This document shows, one piece after another, positions 16,101 through 34,277 of a DNA stretch of 34,277 nucleotides (its first letter is position 1; each line of letters begins with the position of its first letter). The stretch lies in the UHGV virus genome UHGV-0115522. One strand, 5' to 3'. The notes under the pieces were generated by a model. The model was not told the origin of the DNA. It saw nothing but the letters and a program-made list of their open reading frames with translations, and did not search any database. The stretch comes from a virus. The translations under genes and the position numbers were made by a program.

Positions 16101-16617
16101 CGGTTACACCGGAACCACCTGTCCCACCTACATCATCACCTCCGTATATACTTCTGTAATTATCAACTATAATATCATCCCCGCTTAACCCTGCACCTCC
16201 GCTACTTCCTGAGCCACCAAGACCATTACCCCCATATACATTTCTGTAATTGTTTATAGATATTTTGTTGCCACTAACAGCAATTCCACCATTATATCCA
16301 TCGCCTCCCCAAACACTACCATTATTATTTAGCGTAAAGTTTTCACCGTAGACACCTGCACCACCGATTGATGTATTGCTTGTTCCTCCTTTGATGTTAA
16401 TACTGCTTTCAACAGATAGTATATTTTGAGTATAACTTGTTTTATACGGCACGCTGATATTAAGCGCCGCGTTTCCATCAACACCTGTAATACTCCTGGT
16501 TATACTTTCAGGTATACCATTACCATTCAGTTGTATTGTTTGCGCACCAGAAAAATGAGACTGCACAGAATAAATTATACTGACCAGAAATTGTAAAATT
16601 CGTATATTCTTATTCAT
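13120..16617 (-). CDS. Autotransporter (type Va) with AIDA/pertactin-like glycine-rich passenger and C-terminal beta-barrel
   Basis: 1165 aa. N-terminal signal peptide (MNKNIRILQFLVSIIYSVQSHFSGAQT), long passenger with reiterated GG-x-G-x-NG-type repeats, and a C-terminus ending ...SAMLSVEYRF typical of outer-membrane barrel closure. AT-rich. Confidence 0.85.
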   Translation of the reverse strand: MNKNIRILQFLVSIIYSVQSHFSGAQTIQLNGNGIPESITRSITGVDGNAALNISVPYKTSYTQNILSVESSINIKGGTSNTSIGGAGVYGENFTLNNNGSVWGGDGYNGGIAVSGNKISINNYRNVYGGNGLGGSGSSGGAGLSGDDIIVDNYRSIYGGDDVGGTGGSGVTGSNITVHNSGGILGGNGVNGGDGINGSNLFITNGNMISGGYGIKQGGDAISGNQITLNNNGIVQGGYGPDGGCSVYGEDIHISNHGNLSGLYNSQKDAYNTSIIFSGGYNSLDIYSDSVINGDIKLASIPVNGTNELIIKNINNATAINGGLMIGNGSSVYLSGKNSIFNGNISIDEDASMNLSVGNANVHANTITLKSDSWLNIDTSIKNWTQDYYTLLSSDTGISIADNSHIVQYNALLTEGAESYVYTSLNDDDNKLISMLRWNNTKGMGYGTFNIEKDATLNIGVSLSDNLSPLLYDGWDGKSLTKSGNGTLILSATNNYTGNTEVKSGVLILAAPDALGRTEYLYLSRGAELDMNGYPQTISKLLTAAGSVLNIHGGSLILNNGGESAGTIAGDGSLNINGGMLDITGNNRNFSGVFTVNKGAHLAVSTADNLGTAFVDNYGTLTLNSTSAWQLTNNISGYGNVRKTGAGALNISDNAKWTGMTDIIQGTVILGNADSPVMLGSNQVIVEEQGKLSGFGGVAGNLSNSGIVDLTTYMPGNILTVGGNYTGRNGLILLQTETGGDNSKTDRLVIKGNASGRTRVAVTQAGGTGAETLNGIEVIHVSGNADNAEFIQTERITAGAYDYILKRGQGINSTNWYLISRKDIPVPQPEAVPESHDNNLRPEAGSYVASIAAANNLFVTNLYERQGQELYISHMTGEENEAGIWMYNKGKHNRWRDNSSQLRTRGNSYVVLIGGDIAQWSLNGTDRWHTGMMAGYGHNNNSTNALSTGYHSEGRMNGYTAGLYATWYANDETHNGSYLDSWLQYSWFDNHINGERLPAESWKSKGFTVSLEAGYSWKAGEFTDNYKGSHEWYVQPQLQVVRMNVKSDKYHESNGTSIENTGNGNILTRLGARTWLTSKNGKNTRYAVPFRPFVEAHWLHNSRVFGTSMNGVSIYQDGARDIGEINGGVVGMITPEVAFRADAGIQLGEHGYHNTSAMLSVEYRF

Positions 16618-19108: not shown

Positions 19109-21229
<2,121 letters not shown>

Positions 21230-21492
21230 GTAGCCTTTTTTAATATTTCATTTTCCATTTCAATACGTTGTAGCTTTTTCCTGAGCTCACGGATTTCAAT
21301 TTGTTCCGGGGTAATGGGGGAGGCTTTTGGTGTTTTTCCCTGCCGCTCATCACGTAATTGTTTCACCCATCGCGTCATTGTGGAAAGGCCGACATCCATA
21401 GCGCTGGCTGCATCTGCCACGGTGTAATTCTGGTCAACGACCAGTTGAGCGGATTCGCGTTTAAACTCTGCGCTGAAATTTCTTTTTTTCAT
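21230..21492 (-). pseudogene. IS911-like OrfA, interrupted by IS30 near its 3' end
   Basis: Starts [88 protein letters not shown], then runs into IS30. Removing IS30 and one GT copy restores ...[16 protein letters not shown]-stop using 19955-20008. Confidence 0.8.
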
Positions 21493-21676
21493 TATGGCAC
21501 CTGTGTTGTTCTGAGGTGAGCATATCACCTCTGTTCAGGTGGCCAAATTCAGTAAACCACTTCAGAGGGAAACGTTCAAAAGCAACCGCCGGGAAAATGA
21601 AGGCTGAAGGGCAGAAAAAAGGTTACCCGATGTTAAAGAACGTGAGGTCAGAGACGGCGTTCTGTGCTTCCGTCGT

Positions 21677-22021
21677 GTGGCTGAGCGCGGCACGGAGCCA
21701 AAAAATACGAATTCTCCCGAGTGGTGGGCGTGGCGCTGGTCCGCACATTTCGGCCTTTGCGAAGATGAGAATGAAATTGCCAGCGGCAATAGTGCATATG
21801 GTGCTCTGAACCTGGCTTTCCATATCGGATTCAAACATGTAGCCCTGGTGGGCGTTGACGCTACGCAAGAACCACGCGTTCATTCCGGCGGCACGCCAAA
21901 AAATCTAAGTCACCTGCCTTTGTTATTCCAGTCTGCGCGTGAACAGATTGACGTTGTTTCATGCGGGAAAATGGGAGGTATTCCGCAGATGACTCTTAAA
22001 GAATGGCTGAAGAATACATGA
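21677..22021 (+). CDS. Hypothetical ORF between the IS block and the phosphatase gene (possible remnant of the preceding P1 gene)
   Basis: 114-aa ORF with GTG start; its stop (22019-22021) overlaps an in-frame ATG of the phosphatase gene (ATGATG), suggesting coupling. No motif. Confidence 0.3.
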
Positions 22022-22695
22022 TGGCACCAACAATTTATCACCGTATCGACGGTACCAAATACAGGAATATCTGGGTTGTTGGTGATCTGCATGGTTGCTA
22101 CACCAGACTGATGTCCGAACTCCATCGTGTGGATTTTGACCCTGCGCAGGATTTACTGATATCGGTCGGCGACCTTATCGATCGCGGCACCGAAAATGTT
22201 AAATGCTTGGAGCTATTGCAGATGCCATGGTTCAGAGCGGTTATGGGCAACCATGAGCGGCTGATGATTGATGCGTTAAGTCCTGATGGCAACGTGAATA
22301 ATTGGCTAATGAATGGCGGTCAATGGTTCTTCATGCTGGACGCTGATCAGGAAATATTAGCCAGGGCGCTGGTGGAGTTGGTAAGACGACTGCCCTATAT
22401 CATTGAGTTGAACACCGGGCAAGAAACTATCGTTATAGCCCATGCCGACTATCCGGATAATGAATATCAATTCGGTAAGGAGGTGCCGCTTTTCAACGTT
22501 GTCTGGGCGCGCGAGCGTATCAGTGATTCGATGGATGATATTGGTGGCGAAATTTCGGGCGCAGATCGTTTTATCTTTGGTCACACTCCGGTGAAAAGCC
22601 CGAAGACATTCTGGAATCAGCATTATATCGACACTGGTGCCGTATTTTGCGGAAACCTGACATTGATGAAAGTGAAAGGTGATGGTGCAGCATGA
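22003..22695 (+). CDS. ppp: Ser/Thr protein phosphatase, lambda-phosphatase/PrpA-like metallophosphoesterase
   Basis: Motifs GDLHG, GDLIDRG, GNHE and C-terminal GHTP in PPP-family order. True start may be ATG 22018 or 22021. ppp is the P1 gene name as I recall it. Confidence 0.8.
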
Positions 22696-23393
22696 AGATT
22701 GCTTTAGTTCTTCGCTCTGGTGGTGACTATAACGCTTCCGATGTGCAGTGGCTGGTTAATCAACTGCCAAAAGGCTATGAAATTATTTGCCTGACAGACC
22801 TGAAGCGTTTACATGTACCTGGCGTCAAAGTTGTCCCATTGATCAACCAGTGGCAAAAGTGCCGTGGCTGGTGGACGAAAATCGAGTTGTTCCGACCGGA
22901 TATAACAGATGATCTGTTCTATCTGGATTTGGACACAGTTATTGCCGGTGATATACGCCCAATCCTTGAGAATCCACCAACCAGCTTCACCATGCTTAGG
23001 GATTTTTACCATCCACAATATCGTGGTAGCGGTGCCCTGTGGATACCAAATAGTGTAAAAGCGCATATCTGGAGTTCATTCTGGCAAGATCCGGAAGGTT
23101 GGATTTCTCGTTGTGTCACTACTGAGTGCTGGGGTGACCAGGGGTTCTTACGAAAGGTTATGGGCGATGATACACCAGCATTTCAGGATCTGTATCCAGG
23201 ATGGTTTGTAAGTTACAAGGCCGATGTTGTGGAACCTGGTTCAAAATATGCGAGCGCGCGTTACTCCAGGGGGAATGGGGCATTACCAAAAGACTGCCGA
23301 ATAATCTTTTTCCACGGCAAACCGCGACCTCGCGAAGTGTCAGAGGATTGGCTTCCCCTTATCAGCTCATTTTTTGAGCGAGAATCAGAATAA
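22692..23393 (+). CDS. Hypothetical protein with a possible GT-A-like DxD motif
   Basis: 233 aa, start overlaps the phosphatase stop (ATGA). A hydrophobic strand followed by LDLD ([14 protein letters not shown]) resembles the DxD motif of GT-A glycosyltransferases. Weak inference. Confidence 0.6.
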
Positions 23394-23394
23394 T

Positions 23395-23411
23395 ATTGCT
23401 CTAATAATTTC
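23395..23411 (+). promoter_or_regulatory. C1 operator-like site
   Basis: ATTGCTCTAATAATTTC (15/17), beginning 2 nt after the stop of the preceding gene. Confidence 0.7.
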
Positions 23412-23420
23412 ATATTTTTA

Positions 23421-23449
23421 AAACGTGATGTACACTCATCACGTTTTTT
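23421..23449. terminator. Symmetric hairpin with A/T runs on both sides (possible bidirectional terminator)
   Basis: aaacgtgatg-tacact-catcacgttt (10-bp stem) with T-runs on both flanks, between two oppositely oriented operator-like sites. Confidence 0.5.
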
Positions 23450-23460
23450 ATTAGAGCAAT
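23444..23460 (-). promoter_or_regulatory. C1 operator-like site
   Basis: Reverse complement ATTGCTCTAATAAAAAA (14/17); inverted relative to the site at 23395-23411. Confidence 0.65.
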
Positions 23461-23474
23461 CTACAAGGTGCGCT

Positions 23475-23693
23475 ATGTGGCCATTCCGACGGAAATATCA
23501 CTACTGGCTGATCGCCTTTGTTACGCCGACCGGCGGTATCAGGCATGTAATCACCAGGTATCGCAACAAGAGACTCACCTTAGCCAGAATTTTACAGGCT
23601 GCCATAGGTGAGGGACTGGATACAAATTGCGTAGTCCTTCCACCTTCATACTTAGGAAAAATGACCGAAGCACAAGCTAATACGGAACTTTGA
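23475..23693 (+). CDS. Small hypothetical protein, first gene after the operator pair
   Basis: 72-aa ORF with AAGG 7 nt upstream of ATG; ends 1 nt before the next gene. Confidence 0.45.
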   Translation: MWPFRRKYHYWLIAFVTPTGGIRHVITRYRNKRLTLARILQAAIGEGLDTNCVVLPPSYLGKMTEAQANTEL

Positions 23694-23694
23694 A

Positions 23695-24957
23695 ATGAGC
23701 ACTTCAGCACAAAACCAATCAATCGAAAATGTATCTATCCCTGACGTCCTGAATGCCGGTATCCCAGCCATTATCCAGAACATCCGGGCCGCGCAACGCC
23801 GCGTTAGTTGTGATGACCTCACAGCGCGTTTTTTTGATAATGCGGTTCAGTCAGCGGAGATGCTTCACGCACAGCTTATTGATGTTTATAACGCAGAAGC
23901 TGATAGCCATAACTCCCTGGTAGATGCAGCTGAAAATATGCAGTTGGATCTCGGTCTGAAGGGTAAAGAAATTGAAGAGCTTCAGCTACAAATTGAACAT
24001 TTGAAACGCCAGCAACAGGACGCGATCGACGATGCGACGCATGACGCCAACCAGCGTGCTGATAATGCCGAACGTATAAGCATTGAGCTGGAAACAAAAC
24101 TCAATGAAATGACCGCGATGGTTGAACTGCGGAACTCACAGATTTCAACGCTAAAATCTCAATATAAAGAGATCATGAAACTTGATCCTTTTAACCTTGA
24201 GAAACGCTATAACAAAGCTAAAAGCGAGCGACAGGAACTGCGTAAGCAGGTCGCCGATCTTAACCAACAGCTCAAAAAAACTATTAAAGATGCAAGCGAA
24301 GCGCGCGTGGCATTTGCTAATAAAAAAGCAGAGGTTACCGCGCTGGTTAATGAGAATGCCAAATTTGCGACGCTCAAGAAGGAAATGTATGGCATTACTG
24401 AGCGCCGTTTCCCTGCAAGCAAACTTCATCCGACGTTAGGGCAAATCTCCTTCTTCCCGCGCCTCCTGGCTTATGGGATCTCATCGCCTAAAGAGTTCAA
24501 TAACGAGCGTCCTTATATCGTTTCTAAGCTGGACTTTGCTTATCAGTTCTGCTGCGACATGGGCTATGCCATTGATATCCGAATCAACGAATGGTTGATG
24601 CCAAACTTCCAGCCGCTGGCCATTTTCCGCGAGTTCCAGCCGGAAGGTTGGGTAGAGTTCTTCCATGAATTGATCTGTAAAGAGATGGAAAGCCGCCGCC
24701 CGGAACTGGTCCGCCGTGTCGAGTGGGCGCAAGAGGTTATGTTGGCAGATGCAGAGCTGCCGTTCGAACCGGAATTTATTGATGATCTGGCAGCTAAAGG
24801 GCTGCATACCCTGTTTGATGTGGTTACCCGCCGTCATGAGCAGTTGGTTGTCGAATTGGGTTTAGAGGAAACAGCGGCAAGAAGACTTCTCGATGTTTGC
24901 TATGCACGTAGCGATGCATGGGAAAAAGAGAACGGCGGCACTATTTACGTTCGCTGA
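23695..24957 (+). CDS. Hypothetical protein with a long coiled-coil-like central region
   Basis: 420 aa; central about 200 residues are rich in E/K/Q/L heptad-like sequence. No catalytic motif recognised. Confidence 0.7.
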   Translation: MSTSAQNQSIENVSIPDVLNAGIPAIIQNIRAAQRRVSCDDLTARFFDNAVQSAEMLHAQLIDVYNAEADSHNSLVDAAENMQLDLGLKGKEIEELQLQIEHLKRQQQDAIDDATHDANQRADNAERISIELETKLNEMTAMVELRNSQISTLKSQYKEIMKLDPFNLEKRYNKAKSERQELRKQVADLNQQLKKTIKDASEARVAFANKKAEVTALVNENAKFATLKKEMYGITERRFPASKLHPTLGQISFFPRLLAYGISSPKEFNNERPYIVSKLDFAYQFCCDMGYAIDIRINEWLMPNFQPLAIFREFQPEGWVEFFHELICKEMESRRPELVRRVEWAQEVMLADAELPFEPEFIDDLAAKGLHTLFDVVTRRHEQLVVELGLEETAARRLLDVCYARSDAWEKENGGTIYVR

Positions 24958-25029
24958 CAGTTACAGTGTCACTTTTAATGCTGGTGGAGTGCGCCCACCA
25001 GCATTTTTTTCGTCCAATGAGGAGGGCAT

Positions 25030-25536
25030 TTGAGTATTTTCAATAAACACGCACACCAGGAACGTCCGTATATCGTCATAGTTGATATTGATGGAACAAT
25101 ATCAGAGGCAACTGAAGACAGACTGCATTTGCTTCCGCCACCAGGTAAAGGTGCATTAACAAAGGACTGGAACGAGTTTAATCTCGCCTGTGACACTGAT
25201 ACTCCCATAACTCCAGTTATTGATATTGTGCGCCAGTTATTTAACGTTTACACGGTCTGGTTTGTAACCGGGCGCTGTGAGATCGCAAGGGATAAAACAC
25301 GAGCCTGGCTGCGGAAGTACGTAACAAACGGGGCTGAGCCTTTGCTATCTATGCGTCCTGCCACCGATGACAGAAATGACGGCCCAGCAAAGATTGATCT
25401 CCTTAAGAAAATTGGTCTAAGTAAAATCGCGTTCGCGCTGGAAGATAAGATTGAAGTGGCGCGTGTTTTCAGGAGGCACGGCGTGCTTACGTTAATGGTC
25501 AGGGAGTATGAAAACGCGCTTCTCCATCAACAATAA
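25030..25536 (+). CDS. HAD-superfamily phosphatase-like protein
   Basis: 168 aa; N-terminal VIVDIDGTI fits the HAD motif I (DxDGT). TTG start with GGAGGG upstream. Confidence 0.6.
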   Translation: MSIFNKHAHQERPYIVIVDIDGTISEATEDRLHLLPPPGKGALTKDWNEFNLACDTDTPITPVIDIVRQLFNVYTVWFVTGRCEIARDKTRAWLRKYVTNGAEPLLSMRPATDDRNDGPAKIDLLKKIGLSKIAFALEDKIEVARVFRRHGVLTLMVREYENALLHQQ

Positions 25537-25552
25537 TTGCTCTAATAAATAT
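25536..25552 (+). promoter_or_regulatory. C1 operator-like site
   Basis: ATTGCTCTAATAAATAT (16/17), overlapping the stop of the HAD-like gene. Confidence 0.75.
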
Positions 25553-25634
25553 TGATTTTTAAAACAGAGAAAGTGAAAATAAAAACATGCCGCAAGGCGC
25601 GGCATGTATCCAATCAATCACAGGAGCTGAAAAT

Positions 25635-25721
25635 ATGAACACGGCATTCAAAATCATTATGGCCGCGATCTATTTCTGGCTGTTCTCTATCACTTTTGGC
25701 GGCATTGTCGCGCATGGGTAA
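25635..25721 (+). CDS. Unlisted 28-aa hydrophobic peptide
   Basis: MNTAFKIIMAAIYFWLFSITFGGIVAHG; AGGAG SD 8 nt upstream of ATG; stop TAA followed by the GGGGGA SD of the next gene. Below the 60-aa ORF cutoff. Confidence 0.4.
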   Translation: MNTAFKIIMAAIYFWLFSITFGGIVAHG

Positions 25722-25730
25722 GGGGGATGC

Positions 25731-26312
25731 ATGAAAGGCGAAGTGAAAGAGCGCGGCATGATTTTCAACGATGAGATGGTCCGGGCAATTCTTGGCGGGA
25801 ATAAAACACAGACTCGCAGGATTGTTGAAGAAAAATTCTATGGACGGGCAGTGGCCGCAGAGTTGCTTGCTAAACATTGTCCATATGGTCAACCGGGAGA
25901 TCGTATTTGGGTTCGTGAAACCTACCGGGTACATGGCAAAGCGACGGACGTCGCAACGCTGGTTTATCGCGCAAGCGTGCGTAACTCCTGGACAGAACAA
26001 ACGCACCGGGTTCCGGTTGAGGTTTGTAATAAGCCAGTATCAGAAAAGTGGACGCCATCAATTCACATGCCGCGCTGGGCATCGCGCATTTTGCTGGAAA
26101 TTACCAACGTGCGCGTTGAGCGGTTGAACGATATCAGCGAATGCGATGCAAGGGCTGAGGGCGCACCAACAGAATTTACCCTCATTGGCGATAAGCATTA
26201 CCCAGGTTTCCGTAGCCTATGGGAATCAATTTATGGCGAAGAAAGTTGGAACGCTAATCCCTGGGTTTGGGTAATCGAGTTTGAGCGTATTCAGGGGGCA
26301 ACCAGTGAGTAA
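25731..26312 (+). CDS. Hypothetical protein, possibly ASCH/PUA-like
   Basis: 193 aa; N-terminus MIFNDEMVRAILGGNKTQTRR resembles the start of ASCH-domain proteins as I recall. Moderate. Confidence 0.6.
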   Translation: MKGEVKERGMIFNDEMVRAILGGNKTQTRRIVEEKFYGRAVAAELLAKHCPYGQPGDRIWVRETYRVHGKATDVATLVYRASVRNSWTEQTHRVPVEVCNKPVSEKWTPSIHMPRWASRILLEITNVRVERLNDISECDARAEGAPTEFTLIGDKHYPGFRSLWESIYGEESWNANPWVWVIEFERIQGATSE

Positions 26313-26322
26313 CCGTTTTTAC

Positions 26323-26655
26323 ATGATGTGCTCGCGTGAAACTGTGGGTAATAACGCTTCATTCCATTGCCATAACGGCAATGGTTACAGCTCTGATATC
26401 GATCGCGCTCATGTTTACACGCTGGAAGAAGCCCAAAAAGCCTGGAATTGTGGGCGAGATATCGAGCCACCTGTTAGCGCTAATCTTGATGTTGCTGGTG
26501 CCAGGCTGGTTTCGGTTCTATTTGGTGATTACCGCGACGACTTCTTTCAGCCTGAAGAAGTTGATGTAGTGCGAGAAGCATTAAACGAGCAAAGTGTTGA
26601 TAACGATGATGCTCATGCGGAAATCATCAAAAAAATGAAGCTGCTAACTCACTAA
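26323..26655 (+). CDS. Hypothetical acidic protein
   Basis: In-frame ATG at 26323 (MMCSRETVGNN...) just after the upstream stop; the listed 26281 start overlaps the preceding gene by 32 nt. Confidence 0.5.
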   Translation: MMCSRETVGNNASFHCHNGNGYSSDIDRAHVYTLEEAQKAWNCGRDIEPPVSANLDVAGARLVSVLFGDYRDDFFQPEEVDVVREALNEQSVDNDDAHAEIIKKMKLLTH

Positions 26656-26703
26656 ATTATCAATTATGGTGCTATCACCTACGACACCGAGAGAAATTTT
26701 ATA

Positions 26704-26826
26704 ATGTCAAAAGTAAATGTTTTGATTTTTTCAGCAATTGTAGGCTTTGGTTTTACTGCTGGAGTGCAGATTTATATTGCGTGGGAAAAAATCATCAACT
26801 ACGCATGGAGTTGTTTTATTAAGTGA
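26704..26826 (+). CDS. Unlisted 40-aa hydrophobic small protein
   Basis: MSKVNVLIFSAIVGFGFTAGVQIYIAWEKIINYAWSCFIK; stop 26824-26826 followed 8 nt later by the next ATG with TGAGGTAAG SD. Confidence 0.4.
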   Translation: MSKVNVLIFSAIVGFGFTAGVQIYIAWEKIINYAWSCFIK

Positions 26827-26833
26827 GGTAAGT

Positions 26834-27127
26834 ATGTGGAGAGGTAATAGTCATGGCAAAAGCCAGATGATACTTACCGAATATCAATTCGACCACAAAA
26901 CTAATGAATCACGATCAGTATATTTGCTTCGGCACAATAGCCGTGTCAGGAATACCGTGTTAGAGCAAAATCTGACAGTTGAAATGGATAATTTCGGGAA
27001 CTTCAAGCCAACAATATCGCTTGATGATTTCCCGCGTGGTTTAAGCGAAAGAGAAGCAATGCTGAAATTAGCAGAATGGCTACAAAGGTTGAGCATTGTA
27101 ATTGAAGATAACTGGAGCACCCCATAA
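26834..27127 (+). CDS. Hypothetical protein
   Basis: ATG 26834 with SD; the listed 26747 start lies in a different frame from the small ORF it would overlap, so the shorter start is preferred. Confidence 0.5.
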   Translation: MWRGNSHGKSQMILTEYQFDHKTNESRSVYLLRHNSRVRNTVLEQNLTVEMDNFGNFKPTISLDDFPRGLSEREAMLKLAEWLQRLSIVIEDNWSTP

Positions 27128-27291
27128 TGAAAAAGAAACAGTTTTGGGCGACGTTTATATTTGTCTGTGTTTGTGGTTTTTTTGTGGCTTTGGCTGGTGG
27201 CGTTGAATGGGGAACGGAGAGCTGCGGTGCATTGGCTGGTAGCACCTTATTCCTCGTTGGTGCGTTAGCTATATCTCTATCTGGAGACTGA
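27127..27291 (+). CDS. Unlisted 54-aa membrane peptide
   Basis: MKKKQFWATFIFVCVCGFFVALAGGVEWGTESCGALAGSTLFLVGALAISLSGD; ATG overlaps the preceding stop (TAATG); two hydrophobic segments. Confidence 0.45.
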   Translation: MKKKQFWATFIFVCVCGFFVALAGGVEWGTESCGALAGSTLFLVGALAISLSGD

Positions 27292-27357
27292 TTATAACTT
27301 TATTACCCTGCTGTTACGGCAGGGAAGCAGCCACACTGTGTAACTGATTAAATTTAT

Positions 27358-27732
27358 ATGATGACATTCAAACATTTTCTTGACTGCCCATTATGGGCGG
27401 CAGCCGCAGGCTATGATTTTAATTATATGGATTGTATGTCTTATAGCGCTACTGCATACGACCATTCGTTCAGTCTGCTGTTTAACTCTTTAAAGATATT
27501 GCCTGAAACAGAAGTAGGGGAGCTTCATTTGTGTCTATTGGACTTTATCGTGGCTGTAGTTGGTATTGCTGTCTGGCCTTTTATTTTCTGGCTGGTGGCT
27601 ATTGTAGTGTGGTTTAAGTGCAAGACATACCGGGAAAGGTATTTCTTAGGCGATGGAATGACTGATATTGCCAAAATGAACATTGAAAAATGGACTAAGG
27701 AATGTGAAAAGAAATGGCGCAAAAAGAAATGA
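27358..27732 (+). CDS. Hypothetical membrane protein
   Basis: 124 aa with a hydrophobic segment (LCLLDFIVAVVGIAVWPFIFWLVAIVVWF) and a basic C-terminus. Confidence 0.55.
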   Translation: MMTFKHFLDCPLWAAAAGYDFNYMDCMSYSATAYDHSFSLLFNSLKILPETEVGELHLCLLDFIVAVVGIAVWPFIFWLVAIVVWFKCKTYRERYFLGDGMTDIAKMNIEKWTKECEKKWRKKK

Positions 27733-28463
27733 CCAGAATCACTAAAGAGCGTATATCAGAGATTATTTCCCGTATCGAAATGTATGGTCACGGTGCTGGA
27801 TATACGGCAGATGAAGTATTTGGACTTGCAAAAATGGCGTTAGCAACTAGCAAAGATGATAAAAAAATGAAGCTTATCGACTTGTTAGTGAAGGAGCTGC
27901 CTAAGTGCGGCGGGTGGCCTGATGGTATGATCGATTGTCGCCTGCTCAGTGCCAATTTAATGGCGCCATGCGCGACTTTTGCTTTTGGCTCAGACCACAA
28001 AAAAGACACGTTCTTTGGGCGCAATTTTTGTTGTGAGATTGAGCTTCCAATTGGTGATCTTGATAGCGATGAATACCAGTCAGTTGTCACTCGCGAACAA
28101 TACGAATCAGCTCTCATAGCGTCGCAGAAAGTCGAGTTCAATGGCGATGAACTTGAAAGTAAGGCTTACAGGTTGGATTTTGGGCAATGGCTGGAACAGC
28201 AACGCGGGAAAATCGATGTGGACTGCGGTTGTGTGTCTGCGGAAACATTCATGCACTGGTTGCGGATAGCTTATGAGGCTGGGAACCATCCGGATCTTCC
28301 GGATAGTTCCCAACAGGCGCCCAGGAAAAGCGTAAAAACCACTCTGGAAAGAGGCTATCTTGAGGCCGCATTAAAGATTAAGCCGGGCCATACGCTAGGC
28401 GTCATTGATGCCATGTTGGTTCATGAAATGGCTAAGGCGTTATTGCCACTGGAGGCTGATTAA
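27714..28463 (+). CDS. Hypothetical protein
   Basis: 249 aa; ATG overlaps the end of the preceding gene by 19 nt; no motif recognised. Confidence 0.6.
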   Translation: MAQKEMTRITKERISEIISRIEMYGHGAGYTADEVFGLAKMALATSKDDKKMKLIDLLVKELPKCGGWPDGMIDCRLLSANLMAPCATFAFGSDHKKDTFFGRNFCCEIELPIGDLDSDEYQSVVTREQYESALIASQKVEFNGDELESKAYRLDFGQWLEQQRGKIDVDCGCVSAETFMHWLRIAYEAGNHPDLPDSSQQAPRKSVKTTLERGYLEAALKIKPGHTLGVIDAMLVHEMAKALLPLEAD

Positions 28464-28500
28464 ATTCCTGATAAAGCTGATATCTGATCACCATGCTAAA

Positions 28501-28529
28501 ATCCCCTCAATTCACAGAGGGGATTTTTG
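28501..28529 (+). terminator. Rho-independent terminator
   Basis: atcccctc-aattcaca-gaggggat followed by TTTTT, 38 nt after the stop of the upstream gene. Confidence 0.55.
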
Positions 28530-28532
28530 TAT

Positions 28533-28799
28533 ATGTTGCATAGAGTTTTATGGAAAAGCGTTATTGTCGGTGCGATGCTGGCTATGTCCGGGTGTGCAAT
28601 GGTGCAATACAATGACGGTGAAAAGGTAAGCATCCAGTCTGATGGCTGGTATGGGCTGGATAGCCTGCAAAAAACCGCAGATAAAGCCTGTCAGCAATAT
28701 GGAAAGTCTAAAGCCGTATATCAGCATAGCGCGAACGCTAATCCACATCTCGCGCCCGGCACGGGCGTTCAGAACACTATTTGGAAATGCGAACCATAA
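28533..28799 (+). CDS. Small putative lipoprotein
   Basis: ATG 28533 (MLHRVLWKSVIVGAMLAMSGC...) with signal-peptide-like N-terminus and a Cys at a lipobox-like position. Confidence 0.55.
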   Translation: MLHRVLWKSVIVGAMLAMSGCAMVQYNDGEKVSIQSDGWYGLDSLQKTADKACQQYGKSKAVYQHSANANPHLAPGTGVQNTIWKCEP

Positions 28800-28982
28800 C
28801 GCAGGTTGGCTTTTTACATCTTGGGCCGAATACTGATTCCGCGCTAAGTTGTTTGTGCGGAAGTGACACTGTGGAGCTTAGAAATAGTAAATACTGGTGG
28901 GCAACAAATTGAGCCTTCACACGCTCACCAGCACACACAAAAAATGGTTAAACAGCAAGGGAATTAATATCTCAGCGCGACA

Positions 28983-29120
28983 TTAAATAAGCCAGCGCAC
29001 GCCTCTGTTTATCACTGACTTGAAAAACCATATCAGAACCACGATGAAGACAATCGCCAGCACTTGGCTAAGAACAGGCGCATTTAAAAATGCACTTAGA
29101 AACTGAAAAATTACAATCAT
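28983..29120 (-). CDS. Unlisted 45-aa hydrophobic peptide on the opposite strand
   Basis: MIVIFQFLSAFLNAPVLSQVLAIVFIVVLIWFFKSVINRGVRWLI; GAGGA SD 8 nt upstream of ATG (29118-29120); lies in an otherwise ORF-free interval. Confidence 0.4.
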   Translation of the reverse strand: MIVIFQFLSAFLNAPVLSQVLAIVFIVVLIWFFKSVINRGVRWLI

Positions 29121-29588
29121 CAGGGTAATCCTCGTCAAATGTAAAGCTGTGTGCTCTCACGTTGACGTAGAAACCCAACCTCTATATAGTTGGATTCGGT
29201 GAAAGAAAGTCGTTAACGTGAACTTACGGCACATGTTTTCGGTATAAAAATCAGGGAACTGTGAATTCCTTGATGTAGTTGGGGCCTGTAATGCAGGCCC
29301 TATCTATTAATGTCATGATTACATCTCAAATTTTCTCCTTATCATTATTATTTAATAAAATTCAATTAATAAAATATCCATTTCCTGTGTGTGCAAACAC
29401 AGTATGAGGAAAATGGCCTCGTTGCAAGTGCATAACTTTGTGGATAACTCTGAAGGCGAATTTACATTTCGGCGCACCGCAAGCCAGATAAGCTGTGCGC
29501 AAAAAGCAATGGGGTGAGAAAAAAACTTTGAAGATATTGCGGCGACTAAATAATAGCCGTTATTCAATTATTCTGGATGGGATTTAAT

Positions 29589-29840
29589 ATGAACGAATGG
29601 AACATAGCAGCTAAAAGCCAGGAAGAAAGGAATAAAGTTAACGTTGACCTGGCTGCTAGGGGGGTTGCCTACAAAGAGCGATTGAACATACCTGTCATAG
29701 CTGAACAGGTAGCCCGCGAGCAACCAGAGAACCTGCGCACCTATTTCATGGAACGTCTACGGCACTACCGGCAGTTAAGCCTCCAGTTGCCAAAGGGAAG
29801 CGATCCGGTATACCAAAAAGACGATACCATCAAAAAATAA
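29589..29840 (+). CDS. hot: Hot, homolog of DNA polymerase III theta subunit
   Basis: 83 aa from ATG 29589; [43 protein letters not shown] aligns with E. coli HolE ([43 protein letters not shown]) from memory. Confidence 0.8.
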
Positions 29841-29846
29841 CAGCAA

Positions 29847-30422
29847 TCATCCGTTCTGTACTTCTTTAATCCGCGCCAACACAGCTTCACGTTGTGCCTG
29901 GATAGCTGCTTTTTCTTTTTCAAGCCGGGACAGCGATAACTCAAGCTCATTGCTGTACCAGATAAGCAGGTCGAGGTTCATACTCTTGTGATCCAAAAAT
30001 GGTGAAACTCCAAGATTCTCTTCTTGTTCCTGTTTCATCGTGAAGAGGTTCATTTCTTCCCTTGAATCAAATTCGGCAACAATCTCTTGCTGTTCCTGGT
30101 CTGGTCGCTGCGGCATCCTTGCTAGGATAAATGGCGGTTCTATTGAAAACATGAATGACGGTTTAGACCGTGTTTTTACCCAGCTTGCCTGCTTTCTTTC
30201 TGCAAGTTCACAGGCGTCATCATAGTTATCTGCCAAACAAAGCATGGATGGACGGTCCCACGCGCCACCGTTTAGACAAAAAACAACAATTTTCCCGTCA
30301 GATTGTGTAACTCCATACGGATGATCCCACCAGGCGTCCAGCTGAGCTTTAGAGCGTTTCTCGTTAGGAGTGCAGTCAAAATTTTTGGGCAATACAGGAT
30401 CGAGAGGAATGCGATTAGGCAT
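29847..30422 (-). CDS. Hypothetical protein divergent from humD (position of lxr in P1 as I recall)
   Basis: 191-aa ORF; start codon about 136 bp from the LexA box. No motif recognised. Confidence 0.55.
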   Translation of the reverse strand: MPNRIPLDPVLPKNFDCTPNEKRSKAQLDAWWDHPYGVTQSDGKIVVFCLNGGAWDRPSMLCLADNYDDACELAERKQASWVKTRSKPSFMFSIEPPFILARMPQRPDQEQQEIVAEFDSREEMNLFTMKQEQEENLGVSPFLDHKSMNLDLLIWYSNELELSLSRLEKEKAAIQAQREAVLARIKEVQNG

Positions 30423-30557
30423 AGCTAATTCCTTATTAACTGATTGGCAACGAGGTTACGCTGATCCGTTGGTGATGAATAGTAGCAAAGCGCACAAAAT
30501 CATCTGCGGTGGTTGATGTACATAACGCGTTTGCACCAAAGGTGTCTCTTTAATGTA

Positions 30558-30577
30558 TACTGTATAAATAAACAGTA
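30558..30577. promoter_or_regulatory. LexA box (SOS operator)
   Basis: TACTGTATAAATAAACAGTA: CTGT-N8-ACAG in an AT-rich palindrome, 20 nt upstream of the humD start. Confidence 0.8.
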
Positions 30578-30596
30578 TTGTTGAGGTGAAAACGCT

Positions 30597-30986
30597 ATGG
30601 GCTTCCCTTCTCCTGCGGCGGATTATGTTGAAAGCAGAATTTCTCTTGATCAGCAACTAATCAGGCATCCATCAGCGACATACTTCATGCGGGCGGCAGA
30701 CAGCCATCACCGTGAGGGAATATTGCAGGGTGCTTTGCTGGTGGTTGATTCCTCGCTTACTCCGGTTGATGGTTCGCTGCTTGTCTGCGCTATGGAGGGT
30801 GAATATCGCATAAAGAGATACCGAAAGTATCCGCGCCAGCACCTGGAGGATTTAAGCACCGGGAAGAAAGAGGCGTTACCAGTAGATGACGATGGTTACA
30901 CGGGTAGTAATGCTGTTTTTGGTGTGATCACTCATGTCATCAATGATGCCCGAAGTGGGGAATTTGATGACTGTCCGGTGATTTAA
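30597..30986 (+). CDS. humD: HumD, UmuD'-like translesion-synthesis accessory protein
   Basis: 129 aa with the S24-peptidase/UmuD fold signature (ATYFMRAADSHHREGILQGALLVVDSSLTPVDGSLLVCAMEGEYRIKRY). Confidence 0.85.
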   Translation: MGFPSPAADYVESRISLDQQLIRHPSATYFMRAADSHHREGILQGALLVVDSSLTPVDGSLLVCAMEGEYRIKRYRKYPRQHLEDLSTGKKEALPVDDDGYTGSNAVFGVITHVINDARSGEFDDCPVI

Positions 30987-31021
30987 GCTGCAAAGTGCTG
31001 GTGCTTTATGCCTGTGAAGTT

Positions 31022-31050
31022 TATAATTGTGTACACATAACGAGTACACG
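31022..31050 (+). promoter_or_regulatory. phd-doc promoter/operator region
   Basis: TATAAT at 31022-31027, then perfect palindrome TGTGTACACA (31028-31037) and a second GAGTACAC half-repeat, just upstream of the phd SD. Confidence 0.6.
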
Positions 31051-31058
31051 AGGTGTTT

Positions 31059-31280
31059 ATGCAATCCATTAACTTCCGTACCGCGCGCGGCAACCTTTCT
31101 GAAGTGCTCAACAATGTTGAAGCCGGGGAAGAGGTTGAAATCACCCGCAGAGGCCGTGAGCCAGCAGTAATTGTCAGCAAGGCTACTTTCGAAGCCTACA
31201 AAAAAGCGGCGCTGGATGCTGAATTTGCATCCCTGTTTGACACCCTGGACTCCACCAACAAGGAACTGGTTAACCGATAA
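31059..31280 (+). CDS. phd: Phd antitoxin
   Basis: 73 aa from ATG 31059 ([73 protein letters not shown]) matches P1 Phd from memory. Confidence 0.93.
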
Positions 31281-31660
31281 TGAGGCATATATCACCGGAA
31301 GAACTTATTGCGCTTCATGATGCGAATATAAGCCGCTACGGCGGCCTGCCGGGAATGTCAGATCCGGGTAGGGCAGAGGCCATTATCGGGAGAGTTCAGG
31401 CCAGAGTTGCCTACGAAGAGATCACCGACCTTTTCGAAGTCTCCGCCACCTACCTGGTGGCTACAGCGAGAGGGCATATATTCAATGATGCCAATAAGCG
31501 TACCGCGCTAAACAGTGCGCTGCTATTTCTACGCCGTAACGGGGTGCAGGTATTTGATTCACCTGAACTGGCAGACCTTACTGTAGGCGCTGCGACTGGC
31601 GAGATATCTGTATCTTCTGTCGCCGCCACGTTACGTAGATTGTATGGTTCTGCGGAGTAG
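31280..31660 (+). CDS. doc: Doc toxin (Fic-fold kinase)
   Basis: 126 aa ([78 protein letters not shown]...) matches P1 Doc from memory; start overlaps the phd stop (TAATG). Confidence 0.93.
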
Positions 31661-31664
31661 ATTA

Positions 31665-31844
31665 ATGGCACGCAAATACAACAAATTGTCCCGTGAAGCG
31701 TTAAAGATGCTTCTTGATGGCGTGAGTCGCCGCGAGGTAAAGCAATACCTGGTTGGTAAGCAAATTGGAGCCAGGACTGCTATTGCTGTGTTATGCCGTC
31801 AGGAAATGGTTGTGCTTAAACAGATAATGCCGGGCAGCAGATAA
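31665..31844 (+). CDS. Small basic hypothetical protein after doc
   Basis: 59 aa from ATG 31665 (MARKYNKLSREALKMLLDGVSRREVKQYLVGKQ...), 4 nt after the doc stop. Confidence 0.45.
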   Translation: MARKYNKLSREALKMLLDGVSRREVKQYLVGKQIGARTAIAVLCRQEMVVLKQIMPGSR

Positions 31845-31871
31845 AGCCCAATCAGTGATTAAAGGTGTGAT

Positions 31872-32771
31872 GTGAAAGCCGTAATTACTCCCTTTGTACA
31901 GAAAGAGCTTGGCCTCGCCACGTTCAAAGTGGATCAGGAGGTCCGAAAGCTGGTGGAGGCTGGCCGTAAATTTATTATGGAGCCGGTGCCGCGTGAGTTA
32001 ATCGAGCACATGGAAGACGGCCTCGTTGTTACGGAGCAAACCATGGCAACAAATGAGGCGTTGCAGCCGTTTTTTAACAGCGATGAACTGTTTCGCCGTA
32101 TTGGTGGAATTGACGCGCTGGTGGCGTGGTTGCGTAGGAAAGAGGGTCAATGCCAGGCCGCAGATCGTAGTTGGTGTGACAACCATATTGTCCACGCAGA
32201 ACGAGACAATAGCGCGGTGTTGTTGTGCTGGCATCACGATAACCATTACCGGATGCGTGGTTTTAATGAGCTGAAAGAAACGCTGCACAATAATCGCGTT
32301 AACTGGATACTGGATGTCGCCCGTCAGGAAATGGGCCTTTCAAATAGCCATGATTTAAGTATTCAGGAGCTGTGCTGGTGGGCTTTCATGCGCAACATGA
32401 TGCACCTGATGCCGGAAGAAGTCTGCCGCATATCAATAAATAAGATGAAGGCTACTCCGCAGGATAGCGGACCTCTGAAAGAGGCGGATATTCGCCCGTA
32501 TGACGATCGCGCTACAGCATATGTTCAAATGATGGAAGAACGCGCCGCGCCGATGCGTGCAAAAGTATGCCCTGTGGATGTTGACTCCGACCCAGGTATG
32601 GCGCATTTCAAAATACCAAAACTTCAATCGCTAAAATTGCCCGAGTACATGGACTTTGTGGCTTCCCGTCCATGCTGTGGCTGTGGAGCTGCGGGAGCTG
32701 GCGCTCACATTACGCCTTATATCGTTCGTCATAGTCGATTATTTCACGGTGAAAGAAGTGGTGCTGGATGA
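31872..32771 (+). CDS. Hypothetical protein; the 3' end may be frameshifted
   Basis: 299-aa ORF (GTG start, AAAGG SD). Its last 35 residues are Gly/Ala/Cys-rich filler ([13 protein letters not shown]...), while the overlapping frame 32656-32883 encodes a well-formed tail (...QIRLTPQLTGKGQQWLTRKLLDAGLLKPVAAE). Confidence 0.5.
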
Positions 32772-32915
32772 TGAAGATGGCTATCAGATACGGTTGACGC
32801 CTCAATTAACGGGTAAAGGCCAGCAGTGGTTGACGCGTAAACTGCTCGATGCTGGCTTGTTAAAACCGGTGGCGGCTGAATAATGGAAGAATGCCCGGTT
32901 GATGCCGGGCATAAT

Positions 32916-33767
32916 TTATTGCGCGCTTTCGGGGTTGTCGTTTACTGGCTGCCCCTTCTTGGTTTTACGGCTGCGCGTAACTGATGCGGCTGACTTAACC
33001 TTTTTCTCTTCGCGAGTGATGGCAATTTGTTTTTTTACATTTTCAATATCTGCCAGGCGATATATTTTTGCTTGTGGCCAGCGGTCGCAGATGATCGGTT
33101 CTATGGAGTCATAAAGGCTAAATTTTGCTTTCTCGAATTCACCGTTGATGATGATTCCATCACGGAGAGTTTCATCGCAGATAAACACGCCACACAGCGG
33201 CACATGGTAACTAACTGATTTACCGTTATTGTAGTTAGGACTACTGGAGATGTAGTGAACGCGCAGCATTGTTTCGCTAAAGCCGTGTACGCGCATACGG
33301 AATTTTTCATCCTCCGGGTACTGCTTCATTAGCTCTTTTGTTGCTTCCAGGTTCTCTATGTATTTCGCACTGTGCTCATTGAACCCCGCGCTTTTTTGGA
33401 TGCGAATGTCCTTATCAATCAGATGAATAATGCGGCCAGCGGTCATGTTGACGCTGTTTACAGCTTCTGTCTGATAGGTCGTAACCTTACGCACACCGCG
33501 AAGGATGTTAGGCACAGGATATAAAATAGTCTTTGGGATATTGAGGTCTGGGTACTGTTCCAGTTCCCGCGCCATTAAAGTCCATTTATCAATTTCAGCC
33601 TGAATGCTGTCCGTTTCTTTGAACGGCAGAACGACAACCGGGCGTACAGGACGACCGTCGCTGGCGGCATCAACGTGTTGGGCGCGTGCAACAGCTTTTT
33701 TTAGAAAGAGATCCCTGAAGCTGACGAACTCCTGGTACAGTTGTTCGCCGTAGACATAATTTATCAT
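32916..33767 (-). CDS. c1: C1 repressor of lysis
   Basis: 283-aa translation (MINYVYGEQLYQEFVSFRDLFLKKAVARAQHVDAASDGRPVRPVVVLPFKETDSIQAEIDKW...) matches P1 C1 from memory, and cognate operator-like sites recur across the window. Confidence 0.9.
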   Translation of the reverse strand: MINYVYGEQLYQEFVSFRDLFLKKAVARAQHVDAASDGRPVRPVVVLPFKETDSIQAEIDKWTLMARELEQYPDLNIPKTILYPVPNILRGVRKVTTYQTEAVNSVNMTAGRIIHLIDKDIRIQKSAGFNEHSAKYIENLEATKELMKQYPEDEKFRMRVHGFSETMLRVHYISSSPNYNNGKSVSYHVPLCGVFICDETLRDGIIINGEFEKAKFSLYDSIEPIICDRWPQAKIYRLADIENVKKQIAITREEKKVKSAASVTRSRKTKKGQPVNDNPESAQ

Positions 33768-33862
33768 TGATCCTCCTCCAGAATTGACATGGCCAACAAC
33801 TCACAGCGAATTACACTGGGAGTTGTTGGCCACCATTATAGAAGGATCCAACGAAAATAATA

Positions 33863-33879
33863 GATTTATTAGTGCATTT
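33863..33879 (-). promoter_or_regulatory. Degenerate C1 operator-like site in the c1 upstream region
   Basis: Reverse complement AATGCACTAATAAATCT (14/17) between the coi stop and the c1 start. Confidence 0.5.
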
Positions 33880-34087
33880 ATTGTGAGTCTGGCTGGTTAG
33901 TGGCCATGAGATATTCGATTGTGTCAGTGAGGTCATCCAGGTCGTCTTGGGTGATGCGGTACTCCTGATTGGATATCTTTGAGTAGTGTTCAGCAATGGC
34001 GCGGGCAGCGTCGGTTTCGGCGGGGTCTACAGATAAAGCGTTAGAGCAATGTCTAACATCGTCGATGGTTGGTGGAATGAAAGCCAT
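33878..34087 (-). CDS. coi: Coi-like C1 inactivator
   Basis: 69-aa acidic ORF immediately upstream of c1 on the same strand; length and position match P1 coi as I recall. Not verified by alignment. Confidence 0.7.
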   Translation of the reverse strand: MAFIPPTIDDVRHCSNALSVDPAETDAARAIAEHYSKISNQEYRITQDDLDDLTDTIEYLMATNQPDSQ

Positions 34088-34222
34088 AATTATGCCTCAC
34101 TGTATTGACAACACAGAGCCTGAAGCTCTGACCTACTGTTTCACCCATGTTCCATGCTGGGGTTATCTATCAACATTGCGCTGTGTGTAAGATGAGCAAT
34201 GCATAGCGGTAATGCCGTTGTA

Positions 34223-34277
34223 GGTGATGCTGCCAACTTACTGATTTAGTGTATGATGGTGTTTTTGAGGTGCTCCA
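34223..34277 (+). mobile_element. IS1 terminal inverted repeat; element continues beyond the window
   Basis: GGTGATGCTGCCAACTTACTGATTTAGTGTATGATGGTGTTTTTGAGGTGCTCCA is the insA-proximal end of IS1 as I recall it, truncated by the window edge. Confidence 0.85.

Follow-up and report, generated by a model that had tools for sequence, protein, structure and literature searches.

The DNA between positions 23475 and 28463 of UHGV-0115522, a viral sequence of 34,277 nucleotides (nt) that we analyzed whole and refer to as the window, very probably represents the long-annotated C1-repressed early block of phage P1 (map units 86-88), in the variant form of a subgroup of P1-like phage-plasmids. The element carrying it is a P1-like phage-plasmid, and the block itself is already known: The P1 reference genome (GenBank record NC_005856, block at 82.1-85.9 kb) has annotations for the operators, promoters, and genes in it. 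The first-pass annotation of this DNA had described a repressor-controlled accessory operon of at least eight tightly packed, co-directional genes. The ORF listing and direct reading together give eleven co-directional open reading frames (ORFs) between the first operator pair and the terminator at 28498-28535, most of them with a Shine-Dalgarno sequence and/or translational coupling. The repressor control that it proposed also holds, in the form of early units under C1 with an intact c1 gene in the same window; the part that does not stand is the notion of an undescribed operon, since this is the annotated pmgR-pmgS-pap/pmgT region of P1.

Megablast against phage genomes, followed by a segment-by-segment map of the block and its flanking signals, gave matches to P1, P7, SJ46, RCS47, and their relatives. 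DNA identity to P1 is 97.6% over 23300-25822, and up to 26310 it reaches 98.9% with SJ46 and 98.8% with P7. At the protein level the first three genes are almost unchanged from P1 (amino acid [aa] identity 100% for pmgR, 99.5% for pmgS, and 97.6% for pap, with zero, two, and four nonsynonymous differences, respectively), and the order and intergenic signals of these genes, P1 genes 92-94, are kept. By using the ratio of nonsynonymous to synonymous change (pN/pS) against P1, SJ46, and another plasmid, we find purifying selection in nearly all of the ORFs that could be tested (pN/pS 0.00-0.35).

We scanned for C1 operators with the P1 consensus ATTGCTCTAATAAATTT, a 17-bp asymmetric site, and obtained seven matches in the whole window, against 0.2 expected by chance. 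The operator pair at 23395-23460 and the operator-like site at 25536 that had been picked out earlier all match this consensus and coincide with annotated P1 sites (Table 1). At the homologous positions the P1 record lists OpmgRa ("former Op86a; controls expression of pmgR and pmgS"), PpmgR, OpmgRb, OpmgT ("former Op88"), P2pmgT, and P1pmgT. Op86a overlaps the -35 element of PpmgR (-35 at 23396-23401 and -10 at 23419-23424, as placed by the P1 record), and Op88 overlaps both the stop codon of pap and the -35 element of P2pmgT (25537-25565), with P1pmgT at 25552-25580. This regulatory DNA is nearly base-for-base the same in the window, P1, P7, and SJ46; Op86a and Op88 each carry a single substitution relative to P1. 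The sites are putative operators here, by homology to those annotated in P1. The c1 gene lies 4.4 kb downstream from the block on the opposite strand.

Table 1. Features of the early block and its control signals, in window coordinates (dG, RNA folding free energy; z, z score of the fold; TM, transmembrane segment)
Feature	Position	Strand	Remarks
C1 operator Op86a (OpmgRa)	23395-23411	+	2 mismatches to consensus; same position as P1 OpmgRa
Inter-operator palindrome	23420-23447	.	11-bp stem, then T6; dG -13.4 kcal/mol, z -5.7
C1 operator Op86b (OpmgRb)	23444-23460	-	3 mismatches; inverted relative to Op86a; same position in P1
pmgR	23475-23693	+	72 aa; phrog_3177
pmgS	23695-24957	+	420 aa; long coiled-coil hairpin, alpha/beta domain, C-terminal (HhH)2 domain
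Intrinsic-terminator-like hairpin	24977-25012	+	11-bp stem, 6 GC pairs, T7; dG -18.1, z -4.9
pap	25030-25536	+	168 aa; TTG start behind GAGGAGGG Shine-Dalgarno; stand-alone PNKP-type HAD phosphatase (predicted)
C1 operator Op88 (OpmgT)	25536-25552	+	1 mismatch; same position as P1 OpmgT
Leader hairpin, 5' untranslated region of PpmgT transcript	25585-25607	+	dG -16.3, z -5.1; conserved in P1, P7, SJ46
28-aa hydrophobic peptide ORF	25635-25721	+	AGGAG Shine-Dalgarno; 44-aa longer ORF in SJ46 annotation, none in P1
193-aa ASCH-fold protein (predicted)	25731-26312	+	PmgT/P7 Upf86.8 family; phrog_874; octapeptide G23-N-K25-T-Q-T28-R-R30
116-aa chimeric ORF	26305-26655	+	~2.4-kb deletion; in-frame; junctions 26464-26484 (BLAST)
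40-aa single-TM peptide	26704-26826	+	phrog_5525
97-aa protein	26834-27127	+	phrog_1258; pN/pS 0.07
54-aa two-TM peptide	27127-27291	+	On 232-bp segment absent from SJ46
124-aa membrane protein	27358-27732	+	phrog_2638; pN/pS 0.19-0.28
249-aa protein, long PmgU-family form	27714-28463	+	pN/pS 0.30-0.35
Intrinsic terminator of PpmgT unit	28498-28535	+	Hairpin 28498-28527 and T-run; dG -20.3 kcal/mol, z -5.1
c1 repressor gene	32916-33767	-	Intact 283-aa ORF; PGAP "phage repressor protein C1" in 99.96%-identical plasmid

The block is not the single operon that had been supposed, because a second promoter predicted to be under C1 control (Op88/PpmgT, 25536-25580) and an internal terminator-like hairpin (24977-25012) divide it. 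Judged by folding free energy and z score, this hairpin is strong; with its T-run it lies within the 72 nt that separate pmgS from pap and is identical in P1 and SJ46. A stop before pap agrees with the P1 annotation, which gives Op86 only pmgR and pmgS. At the far end, the terminator previously placed at 28501 is borne out by a hairpin with a T-run, although it does not bound the array: The co-directional genes continue, the next one starting 6 nt beyond the hairpin. This gene (window 28498-28799) encodes an 88-aa lipoprotein (lipobox LAMSGC, phrog_7757, pN/pS 0.05), and its GAGGGG Shine-Dalgarno sequence lies within the 3' arm of the 28498-28535 hairpin, which suggests expression by read-through, with translation that may be limited by the structure.

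The palindrome between Op86a and Op86b is identical in P1, P7, and SJ46, and analogous palindromes lie between the operator pairs of two relatives (L015 and L017). It is probably a terminator for read-through from the upstream genes ppp-pmgQ that would insulate PpmgR; insulation is proposed because the palindrome would form only in transcripts arriving from ppp-pmgQ. No Lpa-type late-promoter box is found in 22000-34277, window-wide counts being at chance level, and the block thus appears to be early-only. An Rfam scan of 22000-31000 returned no RNA family, and the P1vir transcriptome papers hold no usable per-gene information on the block.

The same design recurs in distant relatives, for which we fetched the genomic context of PmgS homologs. 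Those with PmgS identities of 71% and 53% keep the order ppp-pmgQ-pmgR-pmgS-HAD_PNKP phosphatase (one of them with an extra gene before the phosphatase), have an inverted P1-like operator pair flanking a palindrome upstream of pmgR, and carry about 17 small co-directional genes past the phosphatase that differ from element to element. Right after the phosphatase gene there is an Op88-like site, which in L015 equals the Op88 of the window and in L017 differs from it by one nucleotide. A relative whose PmgS is 27% identical (L014) keeps pmgQ (56%), pmgR (36%), and pmgS. It has no P1-type operator before pmgR; ahead of its pmgR homolog, at 7704-7750, is an exact 15-bp inverted pair, AAGATACTAATTTAT, which suggests that a repressor of different specificity may use the same operator-pair architecture. 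Since this layout is kept across the relatives, we distinguish a conserved core, consisting of an operator pair, pmgR, pmgS, pap, and a further operator, from the array behind it, which is cargo.

Within the core, pmgR and pmgS figure in the published list of the 21 genes best conserved in P1-like phage-plasmids (PMC9603915). In a single-gene knockout library of P1, loss of pmgR is lethal: Lysates contain tails and incomplete heads that are not joined, and the defect is complemented in trans (PMC9024508). That library and a CRISPR interference (CRISPRi) screen found pmgS, pap, pmgT, pmgU, and pmgV to be nonessential, and the nonessential knockouts, these five included, have no plaquing defect and unchanged anti-restriction activity (PMC9024508; PMC10695390). 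Neither the RefSeq record of SJ46 nor the PGAP annotation of pYLPD4b, a near-identical plasmid, marks the pmgR gene (23475-23693) as a coding sequence.

The first-pass annotation had recognized a coiled-coil protein, an HAD-like phosphatase, and an ASCH-like protein in the block, and all three descriptions are upheld; its further statement that no member has a function assigned from sequence is not, since Pap and the ASCH protein have confident biochemical families. In the AlphaFold2 (AF2) model of PmgS (predicted local distance difference test [pLDDT] 84), helices 41-161 and 167-232 form an antiparallel coiled coil, followed by an alpha/beta domain and a C-terminal helical module. The C terminus contains two helix-hairpin-helix (HhH) motifs in a five-helix module resembling the RAD51 N-terminal domain, the make-up of an (HhH)2 domain. 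HHH_5 matches occur in nine of 27 PmgS family members, and the family profile matches the RAD51 N-terminal domain with E = 2.3e-5. The (HhH)2 domain suggests DNA or protein binding. The PmgS family occurs only in P1-like elements (29 clusters in a set of 5.8 billion proteins and 42 representatives in one of 1.8 billion).

Pap scores 46.3 bits against Pfam HAD_PNKP (PF25109; gathering cut-off 27.6), has the DxDGT motif as D19-I-D21-G-T23, and is under strong constraint (pN/pS 0.07). Its PHROG matches are phrog_415 and phrog_505 ("polynucleotide kinase"), and it matches Pnkp1 (4xrp) with E = 5.5e-4. It aligns to the phosphatase part alone (positions 156-292 of 295 in phrog_505 and 207-302 in Pnkp1) and is not a bifunctional kinase-phosphatase, the P-loop 5'-kinase domain being absent from its 168 aa. 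By family membership, Pap is a putative 3'-phosphatase-type HAD enzyme. Among the ten main ORFs, which we scanned against Pfam, NCBIfam, PHROGs, and PADLOC, all PHROG matches except those of PmgS and Pap are labeled "unknown function," and only Pap is placed in a curated family. Single-sequence searches of PDB gave nothing meaningful for the PmgS C terminus, PmgR, or the ASCH, 249-aa, and 97-aa proteins.

Downstream from Op88, the 28-aa hydrophobic peptide ORF differs from P1, P7, and SJ46 solely by synonymous substitutions. The 193-aa protein that follows belongs to a family widespread in phages (pN/pS 0.14). Its AF2 model, built on a database-derived alignment, has a pLDDT of 85 and a predicted template modeling score (pTM) of 0.83, and the top 11 Foldseek matches in PDB are all ASCH proteins (3s9x, 9kyf, 2z0t, 1t62, and 5guq among them; prob 0.96-1.00). 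The seven top chains, from four proteins, have E values from 1.6e-4 to 1.6e-3, with YqfB (9kyf) at E = 6.9e-4 and TMt 0.75; ZmASCH is weaker (E = 0.026-0.05). Seven of the 12 family members match Pfam ASCH at E <= 1, the best at 1.1e-4. The motif GNKTQTRR is invariant across 41 homologs, as are residues K25, T28, R29, R30, E63, and E143. It corresponds to the YqfB-type "GKTR" octapeptide G-x-K-x-x-T-x-R, of which K21, T24, and R26 are catalytic in YqfB (PMC6972931; bioRxiv 10.64898/2026.02.27.708502). By inference, the 193-aa protein falls in the YqfB-like G-K-T-R subtype, either as an ASCH enzyme or as an RNA binder, and is a candidate N4-acylcytidine amidohydrolase. P1 PmgT is a member of the same family with an aberrant C-terminal tail.

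The DNA past Op88 is a recombination hot spot, its content shuffled by deletions and replacements; published work counts the stretch from pmgT to humD among eight hypervariable regions in P1-like phage-plasmids (PMC9603915). From 25822 the window is of the P7/SJ46 type, not the P1 type, and GC content falls to 39%-43% in 26500-28000. Compared with SJ46, the window has lost the Upf87.4 homolog as well as 2.4 kb of DNA that held most of gp095, the ead/Ea22-like gp094, gp093, and gp092, and an acquired segment of 232 bp bears the 54-aa membrane ORF. The 116-aa chimeric ORF at the deletion has an N terminus like SJ46 gp095 and P7 Upf87.6 and a C terminus like SJ46 gp091 (phrog_2457 positions 1-62 joined to phrog_3876 positions 14-77); in an identical plasmid, this ORF is annotated by PGAP as a pseudogene. 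The remaining genes encode small membrane or soluble accessory proteins common to lambdoid and N15-like phages. Homologs of the 97-aa protein are found in N15 (gp44/45 region), phiKO2, and lambdoid phages. The 249-aa protein is 67% identical to the PmgU C terminus and 71% identical to SJ46 gp087, from which it differs in having no 53-aa internal segment. In tblastn searches its residues 149-205 resemble Stx-phage segments labeled "EaA" or "DUF551 domain-containing"; a DUF551 domain at this site was rejected as unproven, Pfam giving no DUF551 match. At least 11 plasmids, with E. coli, E. albertii, Shigella, and Salmonella as their sources, carry this 3.1-kb arrangement at 100% identity, and about 1000 plasmid records contain portions of it at ~93% identity.

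When window 26268-28270 is set against P1 (L001 9127), P1 pmgT and pmgU resemble products of a ~2-kb deletion. In P1 pmgT, an out-of-frame fusion joins the ASCH gene to the 3' part of a PmgU-family gene and yields the aberrant tail of 60-78 aa; P1 pmgU would be the C-terminal remnant in its original frame.

These observations are consistent with the following scheme. In the plasmid (lysogenic) state, C1 would sit on Op86a and Op86b, bracketing PpmgR, and on Op88, over the -35 element of PpmgT, so that both units would be silent. Once C1 is inactivated, the host sigma-70 RNA polymerase would make two transcripts. The first would carry pmgR and pmgS, most of it ending at 24977-25012, with read-through yielding pap; the second, starting at PpmgT, would comprise the leader hairpin, the 28-aa peptide, the ASCH protein, and the mosaic small genes, and would end at 28498-28535. 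On this scheme pmgR would serve virion completion, pmgS and pap would be dispensable, and a recombination-prone cargo array would lie behind them.

Several points weigh against this account. C1 binding to the Op86a and Op88 variants, each 1 nt off its P1 counterpart, is a prediction from sequence, and the stop at 24977-25012 and the two-unit model likewise depend on sequence and on predicted, unmapped P1 promoters. The P7 record names the pmgR and pmgS homologs "sheath structure / sheath contraction," in conflict with the head-completion phenotype of P1 pmgR. The 193-aa protein falls below the Pfam ASCH (PF04266) threshold (13.1 bits vs. 21.2; E = 0.16), and the ASCH-family profile finds no match among PDB sequences even at E = 10; the ASCH assignment therefore rests on predicted structure. 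Finally, lpa and pacAB are absent from their normal place. The element may be a prophage-plasmid that has become defective, with a block that has ceased to contribute to lytic growth.

A rival reading holds that the variable half (25587-28463) is decaying, nonfunctional DNA that successive deletions have left behind in a defective prophage-plasmid. One of its ORFs is the deletion chimera called a pseudogene by PGAP, lpa and pacAB are missing as just described, pmgP is truncated, and P1 itself has a further ~2-kb deletion in the region. However, most of the substitutions that set this half apart from SJ46 and another plasmid are synonymous (pN/pS 0.07-0.35 for the ASCH, 97-, 124-, and 249-aa genes), start codons with their Shine-Dalgarno sequences and translational coupling are intact, and the arrangement persists without change in 11 plasmids across the four host groups named above. 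We consider decay quite improbable. Still further from the evidence is the reading that the whole block serves virion morphogenesis, as implied by the names "pmg" (putative morphogenetic) and, in P7, "sht/hea." The head-tail joining defect of the pmgR knockout fits it, as do the P7 sheath labels on homologs and the use of the same label for the upstream neighbors pmgL-pmgQ, but the published knockouts largely refute it: All P1 homologs except pmgR are dispensable for plaques. PmgS, moreover, has zero occurrences in the main text of the virion proteome paper, none of the predicted activities (phosphatase, ASCH, HhH) is a structural one, and the array past Op88 is swapped wholesale between otherwise viable phages. 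We therefore regard morphogenesis as a role of the block as a whole to be extremely unlikely.

The host-takeover or anti-defense role proposed by the first-pass annotation, in which the variable array together with Pap and the ASCH protein would neutralize immunity or reprogram the host, is the most plausible of the alternatives but still, in our judgment, rather unlikely. Such a role could, for instance, consist in mending tRNA 3'-phosphate ends left by nuclease cuts or in removing N4-acetylcytidine (ac4C) from tRNA. The idea draws on predicted expression from early sigma-70 promoters that C1 controls, on the lack of a late promoter, and on an array that is hypervariable, mosaic, and lower in GC (39%-43%), as arms-race cargo would be, and whose genes are nonetheless under purifying selection. 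Pap is in the same phosphatase family as PNKP, an RNA-repair enzyme, and the ASCH protein bears the YqfB-type K/T/R motif of ac4C amidohydrolases. Yet PADLOC gave no family-level match: The PmgS coiled coil matches LmuB/JetC weakly (E >= 1.4e-4, 18 bits), and the other nine proteins match nothing. The homologs include no characterized anti-defense protein in PHROG, Pfam, and BLAST-type scans, no dedicated anti-defense library having been searched. P1 knockouts of pmgS, pap, pmgT, pmgU, and pmgV show neither a plaquing defect nor a change in anti-restriction (PMC9024508; PMC10695390), Pap has no kinase domain and no RNA ligase partner in the block, and, far from evolving fast, the core genes pmgR, pmgS, and pap show high conservation. 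The proposal thus has no direct support, no homology behind it, and no phenotype in the published P1 knockouts. For the cargo, and perhaps also for Pap and the ASCH protein, it stays hypothetical; we consider it possible, though doubtful, that one gene or more acts in this way. The enzymology hints at RNA-end or tRNA-modification chemistry. A more specific version would make Pap and the ASCH protein early, C1-controlled tRNA-acting enzymes, the one trimming 3'-phosphate/2',3'-cyclic-phosphate ends and the other erasing N4-acetylcytidine, which could counter tRNA-targeting immunity or retune translation, with the small genes as counter-defense cargo. We consider this version distinctly unlikely; if true, the Op88 unit of P1-like phage-plasmids would be an unrecognized anti-defense island.

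Elsewhere in the element, we note several further features. At 32742-32916, pdcB (DUF968) is truncated and joined via a KilAC fragment straight to c1, lpa, pacA, and pacB being missing at their normal position. At 20009-21624, IS30 and fragments of another insertion sequence truncate pmgP (at 21624) and remove pmgL-pmgO along with the Op83 operator and promoter; ppp and pmgQ thereby lack the promoter native to them. On the minus strand, 13120-16617 encodes an 1165-aa autotransporter (Autotransporter beta-domain, autochaperone, pertactin, and VirG insertion domains), a cargo gene located where P1 has res/mod and structural genes. Also on the minus strand, 7175-11200 encodes a 1341-aa Helicase_C protein with weak PADLOC matches to DrmD (DISARM) and DpdE, which may be part of a defense system in the res/mod variable region.

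As a discovery the block carries little weight, since the P1 annotation exists, the downstream variability is published, and the exact variant is present in at least 11 public plasmids. The added value is descriptive and lies in the two putative C1 units with a predicted internal terminator, the conserved layout, the (HhH)2 domain of PmgS, the predicted ASCH identity of PmgT, and the P1 pmgT and pmgU genes as apparent deletion products. These points could guide tests for early counter-defense genes in P1-like phage-plasmids.

Among known systems, the pmgR-pmgS-pap and pmgT-pmgU-pmgV units of P1 share with the window the operators, predicted promoters, palindrome, both hairpins, and the first three genes. 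P1 differs in having no counterpart of window 26268-28270 and in carrying pmgV where the window has the terminator and lipoprotein gene. SJ46, P7 (sht and hea operons), and RCS47 group together among the closest systems; SJ46 and P7 share the operators, pmgR, pmgS, pap, and Upf86.8, and SJ46 also carries the 40-, 97-, 124-, and 249/310-aa genes of the window at 93%-95% identity. At the level of single proteins, the PmgS C terminus can be likened to the (HhH)2 modules of the RAD51/RadA N-terminal domain, the NusA AR domains, and the C-terminal domain of the RNA polymerase alpha subunit. PmgS has no ATPase core, and its module is joined to a coiled-coil hairpin of ~190 residues and an unassigned alpha/beta domain. 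Pap shares the HAD_PNKP domain and the DxDGT nucleophile motif with the phosphatase domain of polynucleotide kinase-phosphatase (T4 Pnk and Capnocytophaga Pnkp1); it has neither a kinase domain nor an adjacent RNA ligase, so that T4-type tRNA repair would be impossible for it alone. The 193-aa protein has the predicted beta-barrel fold and the octapeptide in common with E. coli YqfB and other ASCH N4-acetylcytidine amidohydrolases, but it is ~90 residues longer, with large insertions, and shows no sequence-level match to solved ASCH proteins.

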